A stretch of DNA of 64,000 bases. It comes from a virus (lineage: Duplodnaviria; Heunggongvirae; Uroviricota; Caudoviricetes). The position numbers and the translations under genes were made by a program. The notes under the pieces were generated by a model that saw nothing but the letters and a program-made list of their open reading frames with translations, was not told the DNA's origin and did no database searches. The stretch is from positions 1 to 64,000 of the IMG/VR virus record IMGVR_UViG_3300025649_000002; one strand, given 5' to 3'. The stretch's first letter is position 1. Every line of letters starts with the position of its first letter. Of this stretch, positions 14,282 through 17,648 are shown in pieces.

Positions 14282-15085
14282 ATGAGTTGTATAATATGCG
14301 GCAAACGGACAAACCGAAGCACAGAAGTTGTATGTTCAGATAAATGTTTGAATATATGGAAAAAACGAATAACAAAAGAAATTGATAATTTACCTAAAAC
14401 TAAAGACTGGTCGAAATCATTAGAACTCGATTGGGACAAATGGGCATGTACTGCAGATTGGCATTGCCCATTTTATCACAAAGGAGCATTGAAATCATTA
14501 ATAAAAACGTGTGCAGATAAAAACATTAGGAATCTTGTTATCGGTGGAGATTATTTCAACTTAGATGCATTTTCAAAATTTTTCGGATATAGTAAAGTAC
14601 CATGGAAGGAAGAAAAAAGAGTTGCAAAAAAGATAATGAAAATATTGAGACAACAGTTTGATAATATTGCATTCATCGTTGCCAATCATGAAGAACGATG
14701 GTTGAAATCAAGAAGTGAAGGTGAAGGAGATATTTTAGATATATATGAAATAATTGATGTTCCAAATTTGGAACTAGTAACTGTTCATAGTTTTATTACA
14801 GTACAAGATTGGTTAATTACACATCCAAAAAATGCAAGAAAAAATCCTTTGTCATTAGCAAGAGATCTTTCAACGGTTTATCGAAATAGAAATATCGTTG
14901 TTACTCATGCACATATGCAAGGAATGTGTAGTGATCCTAGTGGAAATCATTGGTTAGTCGATTTGGGTATGATGGGAGATCCAGATAAATTTGAATATAA
15001 AAATGTATCAATAACGACACATTACAATTGGAATGTTGGATTTATGACGGTAGAACAAGGACATCCTACTATGTATAAATTTTAG
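14282..15085 (+). CDS. calcineurin-like metallophosphoesterase
   Basis: DxH (DWHCP), GDYFNLD, ANHE (GNHE-like) motifs; ATG 14282 with GGAGG RBS preferred over 14249. Confidence 0.5.
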   Translation: MSCIICGKRTNRSTEVVCSDKCLNIWKKRITKEIDNLPKTKDWSKSLELDWDKWACTADWHCPFYHKGALKSLIKTCADKNIRNLVIGGDYFNLDAFSKFFGYSKVPWKEEKRVAKKIMKILRQQFDNIAFIVANHEERWLKSRSEGEGDILDIYEIIDVPNLELVTVHSFITVQDWLITHPKNARKNPLSLARDLSTVYRNRNIVVTHAHMQGMCSDPSGNHWLVDLGMMGDPDKFEYKNVSITTHYNWNVGFMTVEQGHPTMYKF

Positions 15086-15103
15086 ACGGCATAGATCTTT
15101 TTT

Positions 15104-15126
15104 CAGAACAAATATAAAATGGGAGA
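15104..15126 (+). promoter_or_regulatory. CAGAACAAATATAAAATGGGAG promoter-like motif
   Basis: Conserved motif upstream of 15137. Confidence 0.45.
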
Positions 15127-15136
15127 ATATTCATAA

Positions 15137-15646
15137 ATGAAAATTATTGAATCTTATTTAGAGAAGTCAGATTTCTCAATTCAACATCTCTCAGCAAATG
15201 AAGCAGATATAATATTTGATTTATGGGTTGAACTTCATAAGGAACTTGATTCAGTAGTAATATTCAAAGTCGCTGGTCCATCCACTACAAAGTGGAACGA
15301 TTTAAAAACTCGTTATATTTCTCGCTCACAAAAAGGGATGTTTGTAATAATTGTTGCATTTGATAAAAACAAAGTACCTGTAGGTTTTTGTGTATGTCAA
15401 CTTTCAGGTCATGGAAAGATTGGCGAGATAGATTCATTGTATACATTACCACAATATCGTAATAAGGGTTTAGGTACTACCTTGGTAAATAATGCAAATG
15501 ATTGGTTTAATTCAAATGGAACTCGCGCTATTCGTGTAAATGTCGATGGTGGAAATGAACGAGCACTAAAACTATATAGACACTTTGGGTTTATTCCAGA
15601 GTACATTGTCATGCGTAACAAGAAATCAAAAAGTGTGAGGTTATAA
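15137..15646 (+). CDS. GNAT family N-acetyltransferase
   Basis: Motif A YRNKGLGTTLV and motif B ALKLYRHFGF. Confidence 0.65.
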   Translation: MKIIESYLEKSDFSIQHLSANEADIIFDLWVELHKELDSVVIFKVAGPSTTKWNDLKTRYISRSQKGMFVIIVAFDKNKVPVGFCVCQLSGHGKIGEIDSLYTLPQYRNKGLGTTLVNNANDWFNSNGTRAIRVNVDGGNERALKLYRHFGFIPEYIVMRNKKSKSVRL

Positions 15647-16051
15647 ATGGACATCGAAAAAGCAGTAATGAAATTATTTGAAAAAGTTGAAAATCCTTCA
15701 GATGAATTAATACACAAAGTTGCTGAAAAATTAGGTATTGAACATAGTAAATTCGAAGAAGTGATTTATGCAACATTACATAAATTTGTAAAATTTCAAC
15801 CTGGAAAACATAGAAATGTAGATGCAAGTAAATATGATGCTAATGAAATGAAAATTGGTATTGATATTGAAAAGGAACATACTGATTGTCCTATAATTGC
15901 AGCAGAGATTGCAAAAGATCACCTTGCAGAAATACCTGATTATTATACAAGACTTGTTAAGATGGAAAAGGATGCAGAAGCAGCAGGAGTAGTTTCGGAT
16001 GATGATGATGGTGAAATGAATATGTTAAAAGCAGCAGCGTCACAGGTATAA
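15647..16051 (+). CDS. hypothetical acidic protein
   Basis: ORF track. Confidence 0.4.
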   Translation: MDIEKAVMKLFEKVENPSDELIHKVAEKLGIEHSKFEEVIYATLHKFVKFQPGKHRNVDASKYDANEMKIGIDIEKEHTDCPIIAAEIAKDHLAEIPDYYTRLVKMEKDAEAAGVVSDDDDGEMNMLKAAASQV

Positions 16052-16053
16052 TT

Positions 16054-16488
16054 ATGAATATAATGCAAAAGTTTTTAGATGAATCTGTATCCACTCCAAA
16101 TCCAGAAGTGGTAGAACCCGCTGATAAATTAGGAGAAGATGAATCTCGTAAAAGAATTCTCGTTGATTTTGATGGAGTATGTCATGCATATTCTCAAGGA
16201 TTTAGCGATGGTACTATATATGATCCGCCAGCAGTAGGAACAAAAGAAGCATTGCAACTCCTTTCCGATAAATATCAACTGATCTGTTTTTCTGCTCGAA
16301 TAAATGCTGGAGATAAACATGGTAAAAAAGAAATGATTGAGTGGTTGAAAAAATATGACCTATTTAGATTTTTTGTTGATATTACGGATAAGAAAATTCC
16401 TTCTCTTTTAATTATCGATGATTCTGCAATAAGACATTCGACATGGGAAAATACTTTATTCGAAATGAAGAAACTTAATATGATTTAG
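16054..16488 (+). CDS. HAD-superfamily hydrolase-like protein
   Basis: Motif I ILVDFDGV (DxDG), motif IV LLIIDDSA. Confidence 0.5.
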   Translation: MNIMQKFLDESVSTPNPEVVEPADKLGEDESRKRILVDFDGVCHAYSQGFSDGTIYDPPAVGTKEALQLLSDKYQLICFSARINAGDKHGKKEMIEWLKKYDLFRFFVDITDKKIPSLLIIDDSAIRHSTWENTLFEMKKLNMI

Positions 16489-16498
16489 GAGAAGACTC

Positions 16499-16960
16499 AT
16501 GAGAATATTAATATGTGATGATAATAAAGATTTGAGTTATATGTTATCGAAATTAATTCAAAAATCGGATAAAAATGCAGTGGTGGAAACTGCAGCAACA
16601 GGCGAAGATTGTTTAAGTATGGCGGAAACATTTTTTCCTGATATTATATTATTAGATCTCAGACTTCCAAAAATGAATGGTTATGATGTATGTACAAAAA
16701 TAAAAAGTAATCGACACCTACATAATACGGGTGTGATAATGATTACAGGCCTTGGCGATAATGGAGAAGTTAAGGAAAGGGCATTAGTTGCAGGTGCAGA
16801 TGCCTTTTTAGGAAAACCAGTAGATCGAGCAACATTAATGGTACAACTTAAACTTGTATATAAGGCAAGAAGAAACGGACGTAATGTTAAGGATAACGGG
16901 TTGAAACACCTAGATGAACTAACCCACAAACTATTCAATTTGAAAGTTGCGGAGGGTTAA
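16499..16960 (+). CDS. stand-alone response-regulator receiver (CheY-like REC) domain protein
   Basis: ICDDN acidic pair, ILLDLRLPKMNG phospho-acceptor Asp, IMITG Thr, LGKP Lys; aligns along the full length with CheY; about 150 aa with no output domain. Confidence 0.7.
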   Translation: MRILICDDNKDLSYMLSKLIQKSDKNAVVETAATGEDCLSMAETFFPDIILLDLRLPKMNGYDVCTKIKSNRHLHNTGVIMITGLGDNGEVKERALVAGADAFLGKPVDRATLMVQLKLVYKARRNGRNVKDNGLKHLDELTHKLFNLKVAEG

Positions 16961-16964
16961 TATA

Positions 16965-17648
16965 ATGTCAGATATGGATCAATGGGGTCAAGAAGTTTTA
17001 AAAGAACTTCATACTTTGAGTGATAGAGTTCAAGATGCAGAAGAACGTTCTGAGAAAAATCAAAATCGTAGGTCGGTCGATTCAGATGGGAGTGGCATGC
17101 AATCAAAAATGCTGGAAATACTTTTGACAAAATCACTGAATGGCAATGATAAAAAAACAGATGTTCCAACTGCGAATGGTGCTATAAAAGGGTTGGGATT
17201 AATTGTAACAATTATTACTGTATTAGTGGGTCTTGTCGGAATTGGCGAATATATGGGAAGAGAAAATGAATATATTCGAAAAGATTTAGTACGTGCAGAA
17301 ACACATGTAGAAACTATTAATACTGAACTATCAGAAGTTTCTAAAATTCAATCAGGAGTTCTTGTAAAATTTATAGAAGTCGAAACACAATTCAAGGGTC
17401 TTAGAGAAATTGTAAATTTACAGCAAAAATTTAATGAAAAAGATCATGATATGAAAACTGAACAATTACGAGACGTTGAAGATTGGATTACATGGTGGAA
17501 TAAATCAGTTTCTCAAGAAAATGCAGATCAATCAGCACAAATAAAAATGTTAAAAGAACGTTTGAAAGAACATATTGATGGACAAAGTGAATTAATGATG
17601 AAAGAATATGAAGCAGGAAGAGTAGTAAATCGAGCAGGAGTAAAATAA
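16965..17648 (+). CDS. membrane coiled-coil protein
   Basis: ATG 16965 with GGAGGG RBS; central TM segment GLGLIVTIITVLVGLVGIG. Confidence 0.45.
   Translation: MSDMDQWGQEVLKELHTLSDRVQDAEERSEKNQNRRSVDSDGSGMQSKMLEILLTKSLNGNDKKTDVPTANGAIKGLGLIVTIITVLVGLVGIGEYMGRENEYIRKDLVRAETHVETINTELSEVSKIQSGVLVKFIEVETQFKGLREIVNLQQKFNEKDHDMKTEQLRDVEDWITWWNKSVSQENADQSAQIKMLKERLKEHIDGQSELMMKEYEAGRVVNRAGVK

Follow-up and report, generated by a model that had tools for sequence, protein, structure and literature searches.

A stand-alone response regulator receiver of a large uncultured myophage and its constant membrane-protein neighbour

Bacteria sense their surroundings mainly through two-component signalling, and how lytic phages make use of it is barely known. 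The window analysed here, by which we mean the whole stretch of 64,000 nucleotides at positions 1 to 64,000 of the IMG/VR virus record IMGVR_UViG_3300025649_000002, contains an open reading frame (ORF) that resembles the receiver domain of a response regulator. This raises the question of what a phage does with a receiver that is attached to no output domain and accompanied by no kinase. In the original prediction, the ORF was read as a CheY-like receiver in a signalling-type gene cassette, possibly serving as a phosphate sink or decoy for a two-component system of the host. Our analysis confirmed the receiver and led to a different view of its surroundings and of its probable mode of action. 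With moderate confidence, and judging from sequence, we favour a functional, phosphorylatable single-domain response regulator that would be supplied with phosphoryl groups by the host and would act by protein-protein contact. The coordinates of the features discussed are listed in Table 1, and related loci are referred to by L numbers.

Identity of the receiver and search for a kinase partner

The receiver ORF, which has AGGAG 8 nt upstream of its start, was matched by Pfam PF00072 (Response_reg) with 85.9 bits (cut-off 30.2) and an E-value of 2.8e-24, residues 3-116 covering profile positions 1-109 of 111. The hidden Markov model check suggested in the original prediction was thus clearly positive. 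By sequence, 251 solved structures match the protein, the best of which is the Spo0A receiver 1dz3 (E 5e-18); this alignment pairs ICDDN with IADDN, LLDLRLP with LLDIIMP, IMITGLG with IMLTAFG and FLGKP with FILKP. The catalytic set is complete, consisting of the acidic pair D7/D8, the acceptor D53, which is invariant in 7 of 7 aligned sequences, T83 and K106-P107, and the switch aromatic F103 is present. The DD pair, Asp, Thr and Lys previously noted on alignment with CheY (D7, D8, D53, T83 and K106) therefore survive a careful alignment and are kept in all relatives. The AlphaFold2 (AF2) model has the Rossmann-like (beta-alpha)5 fold, with strands at residues 2-6, 28-32, 49-52, 78-82 and 102-104 and helices at 10-23, 35-45, 61-70, 89-98 and 110-125, and with a predicted local distance difference test (pLDDT) score of about 90 or more (89-97) over residues 1-80. 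Foldseek superposed it on many receivers, including RpaA, VicR, YycF, phosphorylated Spo0A and CheY 1e6m, with a root-mean-square deviation of 1.1-1.5 A over about 120 columns, and the matches include 1qmp, the Spo0A receiver crystallised with a phosphorylated aspartate. An output domain is absent, as had been stated, and the protein stops at residue 153 after a C-terminal extension of 36 residues. These results confirm ORF 16499-16960 as a canonical, complete stand-alone receiver domain.

Its top sequence relatives are the receivers of Spo0A and PleD, with which it shares the motifs DDN(K/R)(D/E)L and G(E/Q)(D/E)CL. However, it contains neither the Spo0A_C nor the GGDEF domain, and the fold search does not single out either of the two. 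The Spo0A model TIGR02875 scored 75.9 bits against a cut-off of 200, in the receiver part only, and the PleD model of NCBIfam scored 83 bits, far under its cut-off of 474. The best CheY-specific NCBIfam model, NF041367 (CheY_Halo), reached 50.6 bits and the EpsW model 55.3 bits, each against a cut-off of 200, and no che genes were found in the window. With the CheY-, Spo0A- and PleD-specific models so far below their cut-offs, chemotaxis, sporulation and a phage-receptor regulon, which had been named as examples of a target, receive no specific support. The idea that the protein mimics the Spo0A receiver, suggested by the best solved-structure match, was dropped, as NCBIfam gives the PleD model a higher score, the fold search shows no preference and no host can be named. 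Homologues of spo0A described in phages of the gut virome show the opposite truncation, since they consist of the effector domain only (PMC10294663). Another receiver of phages is cREC (PF20274), a divergent form in jumbo phages that is linked to NAD+/ADP-ribose systems (Iyer et al. 2021, PMC7824862). It is likewise a receiver fold encoded by large phages outside histidine-kinase systems, but the window protein is a classical receiver, with 85.9 bits for PF00072 as opposed to 13.8 bits for cREC_REC (cut-off 27), and has no NAD+/ADP-ribose-processing neighbours.

The search for a kinase partner was based on Pfam scans of the window ORFs of at least 100 amino acids (aa) and of the complete set of 34 non-overlapped ORFs with 50-99 aa. 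Across the 64 kb, these ORFs contained no HisKA, HATPase_c or Hpt domain and no second Response_reg, which agrees with the earlier statement that no histidine kinase lies nearby. Likewise, no kinase or Hpt protein was recorded in about 7 kb past the right end of the window (L123), and the retrieved parts of L119 (15.9 kb of a 21 kb contig), L123 and L127 have no HisKA, HATPase_c or Hpt on record. The available sequence, in which the window covers only part of the phage genome, thus contains no classical cognate kinase-regulator pair. One alternative to the favoured reading is a phage-autonomous two-component pathway, in which a cognate histidine kinase would be encoded elsewhere in the phage genome and the receiver would be its orphaned partner. 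The genome does exceed the window, as a contig of 112,782 bp carries a HAD-like protein identical to that of the window; the nearest terminases come from phages of 160-595 kb, and large phages have many regulatory genes. However, cognate pairs are usually adjacent, no kinase or Hpt domain appeared in the 64 kb, the adjoining 7 kb or the 15.9 kb of L119, and the poor conservation of helix alpha1 (mean pairwise identity 0.24) would be unexpected in the presence of a co-inherited kinase partner. We therefore consider an autonomous pathway distinctly unlikely.

Conservation of the receiver family and its C-terminal tail

A word-indexed protein search recovered three close relatives of the receiver with 151-153 aa, and more distant members were reached via the neighbouring genes. 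An exhaustive HMMER search of 1.84 billion representative proteins gave only two clusters that match over the full length including the tail (301 and 279 bits); its list is dominated by multi-receiver hybrid proteins, and the nearest single-domain relatives cannot be ranked from it. Scans of IMG/VR with the receiver protein and with the family alignment found zero relatives, and all receivers obtained from scans of metagenome and genome collections were generic cellular ones with identities up to 45%, which gave no host clue and no prophage copy. The family comprises six related phage loci with identities of 38-99%, the distant members being those of L119 (158 aa, 38%), L122 (146 aa, 43%) and L120/L121 (partial, 60%). 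All family receivers are stand-alone proteins of 146-158 aa, and the DD pair, D53, T83, F103 and K106-P107 are kept in every one of them, even in L119 and L122. The ratio of nonsynonymous to synonymous substitution rates (dN/dS) was 0.26 between the window and L001 and 0.17 between the window and L003, which indicates purifying selection on the phospho-chemistry and a gene that is neither a decaying fragment nor a recent insertion. The possibility of a truncated pseudogene with homologues that carry an output domain, raised in the original prediction, is contradicted by this family. The receiver gene is long established in a small clade of large, uncultured myophages.

Among the five syntenic genes the receiver evolves fastest, with 58% identity between the window and L001 compared with 72-84% for its neighbours. 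Within the protein, conservation is unevenly distributed. The strands and active-site loops have mean pairwise identities of 0.58-0.82, and helix alpha1, the principal kinase-docking helix of receivers, is among the least conserved elements. Variability of alpha1, together with the lack of a visible kinase, would be in keeping with a phosphorylation-independent pseudo-receiver in which only the structural or adaptor function of the fold is used, and atypical receivers that act without phosphorylation exist. Known pseudo-receivers, however, typically lose some of the active-site residues, whereas all five of these residues and the switch aromatic are kept here at 38-43% overall identity in a gene under purifying selection, so that we regard this explanation as very unlikely.

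The C-terminal extension is divided into two parts. The linker (residues 126-133) varies in sequence and in length, with an insertion of 7 residues in L119, and is followed by a predicted helix in which L135, L138, T142 and L145 are invariant and L/M141 and F/C146 are near-invariant. This is the conservation pattern of a docking helix tethered to the receiver, the helix itself being a prediction. An interpretation of the tail as the remnant of a HisKA pre-H-box helix was also considered. One hybrid kinase (P0048) aligns in this way, but the other extended matches are generic post-receiver coiled-coil linkers, and the interpretation was rejected as not significant.

The downstream membrane protein and the mode of action

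The receiver gene is directly followed by the gene of a membrane protein, whose Shine-Dalgarno sequence GGAGGG is contained in the last receiver codons GAG GGT TAA (16951-16960). The membrane protein has one strongly hydrophobic segment, a transmembrane (TM) segment at residues 73-95 (17181-17249), with helical N-terminal and C-terminal regions and the invariant juxtamembrane motif IGEYMxxENEYIRKDxVRxE. It is best conserved at the TM segment and this motif. Of the earlier description as a membrane coiled-coil protein, the membrane part stands with this single segment, the coiled coil being putative. At every locus with readable downstream sequence (L001-L004, L120, L121, L122 and L127-L130) the gene lies 1-5 nt after the receiver, and in L119 the receiver is followed by a short form of 84 aa that consists of the N-terminal helix and the TM segment. 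It is the only neighbour that stays with the receiver at every locus.

Two candidate functions of the membrane protein were rejected. A holin of the T4 type is similar in topology only (about 220 aa, one TM segment), and the comparison with T4 gp t by hhalign gave a probability of 0.1%. A mini phosphotransferase was considered on account of His16, a residue of a helical hairpin that all close relatives share; however, Glu takes its place in both L119 and L122, and neither HisKA nor Hpt matches the protein. Further downstream, a small hydrophobic ORF (Table 1) and a 138-aa acidic protein (17834-18250, plus strand), which is kept in L122 and L119 and has no family match, are also conserved, so that the conserved block extends beyond 17648.

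Taken together, the conserved phospho-chemistry predicts that the receiver is really phosphorylated. With no output domain in the protein and no kinase in the available sequence, the phosphoryl group would be obtained from a host donor, which may be acetyl phosphate or else a histidine kinase or Hpt protein. An output by protein contact rather than by phosphate drainage is suggested by the conserved tail together with the constant neighbour. The signal would be passed on via the conserved beta5/alpha5 region and the tethered C-terminal helix, with the translationally coupled downstream membrane protein as the most plausible contact partner, and the phage would thereby read the phosphorylation state of the host and tune a membrane-associated infection step. 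Three of these steps are inferred, namely the phosphodonor of host origin, the tail as the output element and the partnership with the membrane protein. A 153-aa receiver with one obvious point mutant (D53A) offers a tractable test of whether phages read or sabotage the phosphotransfer of their hosts.

Several observations weigh against the reading as a host-fed regulator with contact output. Comparisons with Pfam, PHROG, PADLOC and PDB place the membrane protein in no recognisable family, and its putative link to the receiver is drawn from gene order among phages that are collinear anyway. The AF2 helix of the tail (residues 134-151) has a pLDDT below 50, and the hydrophobic moment of the tail lies above that of shuffled sequences in only 2 of the 5 distinct members (window and L122). 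In addition, the conservation of E152-G153 in close relatives may be a nucleotide-level constraint from the overlapping Shine-Dalgarno sequence. The variability of alpha1 also fits a receiver without any kinase partner, and the window is only part of the genome, as the identical HAD-like protein on the 112 kb contig indicates, so that a phage kinase could be encoded elsewhere.

The function proposed originally was that of a phosphate sink or decoy. In such a role the receiver would rival a response regulator of the host for access to a host kinase or phosphotransferase and thereby silence one pathway; this could be a two-component system for housekeeping or, as in the case of Detocs, for defence. 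The intact acceptor site and the missing output domain are compatible with this, a variable alpha1 would fit the tracking of different host kinases, and the phage has another anti-defence-type gene, which encodes an Acb2/Tad1 hairpin protein (2091-2303). There is also a precedent in the Detocs defence system, where DtcB, itself a stand-alone receiver, is proposed to take up phosphate from the kinase DtcA and so to act as a phosphate buffer (bioRxiv 10.1101/2023.01.24.525353). DtcB resembles the window protein in being a receiver without an effector domain, and its proposed mechanism is the same sink idea. However, DtcB is a bacterial gene in a kinase-effector operon, and no DtcA- or DtcC-like gene was found in the window. 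PADLOC v2.0.0, applied to the cassette proteins, gave no Detocs component and only weak partial receiver-type matches (SduA 30 bits, PDC-M60B 20 bits), the Detocs content of its models being unconfirmed. Moreover, a pure sink needs neither a conserved tethered C-terminal helix nor a fixed membrane-protein neighbour. The N/E pair found at positions D+2 and T+2 of CheY-like receivers is associated with fast autodephosphorylation, and a draining sink would need such speed; by this rule the receiver family, with R/K/I55 at D+2 and L85 at T+2, does not have the expected pair. In our view a sink or decoy is conceivable but somewhat unlikely.

The favoured reading, a host-fed regulator acting by contact, may be extended to a two-protein phage switch formed by the receiver and the membrane protein, in which the tethered helix would be released or engaged when D53 receives phosphate from the host, and would thus control the membrane protein. 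This proposal, derived from sequence features, is speculative, and we think it unlikely in this specific form. If true, it would tie a membrane infection step to the energy or two-component state of the host, candidate steps being lysis timing, superinfection exclusion or envelope modification, and the virus-encoded receiver would be a sensor of host physiology and not a decoy.

Bacterial single-domain regulators of the CheY, Spo0F, DivK, CpdR and EpsW type are similar to the window protein in that they have no domain besides the receiver, in their complete D-D-D-T-K site with the aromatic switch residue, in their fold, which superposes at 1.1-1.6 A, and in that their output is possible only by protein-protein contact. 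As shown by EpsW, single-domain receivers can act on membrane enzymes (PMC12802240). In contrast to these regulators, the window receiver is encoded by a lytic-type phage, lacks any che, spo or div context, falls far short of the cut-off of every subfamily model and has a family-specific tail of 36 residues. Among phages, the Alteromonas phages V22 (gp30, 149 aa) and A5 (gp11, 147 aa) carry stand-alone "CheY-like" genes, which are annotated as class II auxiliary metabolic genes (AMGs). Shared features are the stand-alone receiver, a C-terminal extension of about 30 residues and the occurrence in virulent marine phages, and V22 gp30 is followed, with an overlap, by gp31, which has an N-terminal TM segment and a coiled coil. 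However, gp30 and the window receiver share only 32% identity over 72 residues, which indicates a separate acquisition. Furthermore, gp30 has Ser at the position of T83 and is set in a tail-fibre/host-recognition module and not beside HAD-like and GNAT genes. A shared tail motif was rejected, because the V22 tail is not amphipathic in the same register.

The V22 locus itself (L085, 9960-12039) shows gp30 among the permuted papain-like amidase gp28, the TM-plus-coiled-coil proteins gp29 and gp31, and gp32 (87 aa, two hydrophobic stretches). The set gp28-gp32 looks membrane- or lysis-type rather than like a host-recognition module alone.

Stand-alone phage receivers are thus already on record as annotations, and the window receiver adds the conserved tethered helix and the constant membrane-protein neighbour. 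At least two unrelated aquatic phage groups, the clade of the window and Alteromonas V22/A5, have independently captured stand-alone receivers ahead of single-pass membrane proteins. On present evidence the receiver is an accessory gene and not a new kind of system.

Upstream genes and the phage

The genes upstream of the receiver were described originally as a calcineurin-like phosphoesterase, a GNAT acetyltransferase and a HAD-family phosphatase, and a DUF5661 protein is added here (Table 1). The phosphoesterase is supported by PF00149 (Metallophos; 24.8 bits, cut-off 21.5) and phrog_221 (E 3.7e-14), with a weak DUF2116 treble clef, and the GNAT assignment is likewise upheld. The HAD assignment is only probable. 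HAD motifs I-IV (DxDx[T/V], S/T, K and DD) are invariant or nearly so in 11 homologues, at D38, D40, S/T80, K114 and D122-D123, and Foldseek gave weak matches of the model (E at least 0.02), mostly to capless HAD phosphatases of the KdsC/SCP/UBLCP1 type; sequence searches of Pfam, NCBIfam and PDB gave zero matches. The nearest homologues in cultured phages (actinophages) are annotated as polynucleotide kinase, and the window also contains a Pnk-kinase-like ORF of 134 aa (27878-28282; AAA_33/phrog_505 "polynucleotide kinase") and a ligase-like ORF. A role of the HAD-like protein in nucleic-acid or nucleotide metabolism is therefore likelier than one in signalling. The three ORFs may represent a split Pnk kinase/3'-phosphatase RNA-repair set.

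Table 1. Features of the receiver locus, with positions in the window.
Feature	Position	Strand	Evidence and remarks
Single-domain response regulator, 153 aa	16499..16960	+	Pfam, PDB sequence and Foldseek matches, AF2, alignments, dN/dS
Receiver layout			Core, residues 1-125; variable linker, 126-133; conserved C-terminal helix, 134-151
Predicted phospho-acceptor Asp53, codon GAT	16655..16657	+	End of beta3 (LLD53LRLP); aligns with the phospho-acceptor Asp of 1dz3
Tail helix, residues 134-151	16898..16951	+	Per-column conservation; AF2 helix at low confidence
Co-inherited single-pass membrane protein, 227 aa	16965..17648	+	True start ATG 16965; Shine-Dalgarno GGAGGG
Small hydrophobic ORF, 36 aa	17680..17790	+	Kept in L004, L120, L122 and L129; no family match
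Calcineurin-like metallophosphoesterase, 267 aa, N-terminal zinc ribbon	14282..15085	+	ATG 14282; GGAGG Shine-Dalgarno
GNAT acetyltransferase, 169 aa	15137..15646	+	Pfam Acetyltransf_1, E 2e-18; phrog_1249
DUF5661 protein, 134 aa	15647..16051	+	Pfam PF18905, E 4.9e-17; syntenic in L001; missed in the original prediction
HAD-like phosphatase (probable), 144 aa	16054..16488	+	HAD motifs; phrog_1238, E 5.5e-10

The view of these genes as a signalling-type cassette did not hold. A functional unit of Metallophos, GNAT, HAD and receiver, with for example the HAD-like protein or the phosphoesterase as receiver phosphatase, could be suggested by the tight packing of the six genes at 14282-17648, with gaps of 51, 0, 2, 10 and 4 nt, by the order Metallophos-GNAT-DUF5661-HAD-receiver, which is conserved in L001 at 58-84% identity, and by the HAD-receiver adjacency kept in L119. 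However, the plus-strand run containing the six genes continues to about 30.7 kb, so that they are not a discrete module, and the synteny is explained by the general collinearity of related phages. In L119 only the HAD-like gene still adjoins the receiver upstream; GNAT and DUF5661 are missing beside the receiver, and Metallophos is located 2.5 kb away behind unrelated genes. The more distant HAD-like loci L131 and L132 have no receiver; there the HAD-like gene is followed by an unrelated ORF or by a nucleoside deoxyribosyltransferase gene. Together with the polynucleotide kinase/phosphatase annotations of the HAD-like relatives and the Pnk-kinase-like and ligase-like ORFs of the window, these loci make a functional cassette extremely unlikely, and L119, L131 and L132 largely refute it. 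The four upstream genes are accessory genes of the kind that phages ordinarily carry.

The phage origin of the locus is confirmed by the remaining gene content. The window (about 31% G+C) contains a large terminase of the T4 type (61964-63715, minus strand), a tail sheath (44962-46671), baseplate wedge and gp25-like proteins and an endolysin; the terminase, tail sheath and baseplate wedge proteins identify it as part of a large myophage. The nearest relatives of the window terminase, found in uncultured huge phages (LR756508, 484 kb) and in Flavobacterium phage immuto, are only about 30% identical to it. A blastn comparison of the cassette with 50,697 phage records gave zero DNA matches, and tblastn in the same collection found distant matches (below 40% identity), mostly to unannotated metagenome-derived records. 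The same phage has been assembled from several metagenomes. A GGAG/GAGG Shine-Dalgarno core is present 4-18 nt upstream of 37 of 66 genes (56%), compared with 4.6% of random positions, which points to a host strongly dependent on Shine-Dalgarno sequences. Such reliance argues against Bacteroidota or cyanobacteria as host, and the signal sits oddly with a Flavobacterium phage as the closest cultured terminase relative. In the window, neither scans for promoters and terminators nor the T4 late-promoter motif TATAAATA rose above chance level, so that no timing class could be assigned.

Further genes of the window were noted in passing. The Acb2/Tad1 hairpin protein mentioned above is a plus-strand ORF of 70 aa (Pfam PF24729, 73.6 bits, E 1.4e-20) and is homologous to the sponges with which phages sequester the signalling nucleotides of CBASS and Thoeris. 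On the minus strand, a 1579-aa ORF (56205-60944) lies beside virion structural genes and was matched by neither Pfam nor PHROG at E-values up to 1e-3, and an adjacent pair at 36984-39776 encodes an ATPase (phrog_1297, weak AAA_5) and a DUF2201 metallopeptidase-like/VWA-like protein, for which the PHROGs label "HNH endonuclease" is unsupported by the Pfam domains. A glycan-type run on the plus strand (19452-27432) comprises a GT2 fused to a methyltransferase-like region, a polysaccharide pyruvyl transferase, a B12-binding radical SAM enzyme, a methyltransferase, a hexapeptide acyltransferase and a Glyco_trans_1_2 protein, and a comparable glycosyltransferase/methyltransferase run is located downstream of the receiver block in L119.

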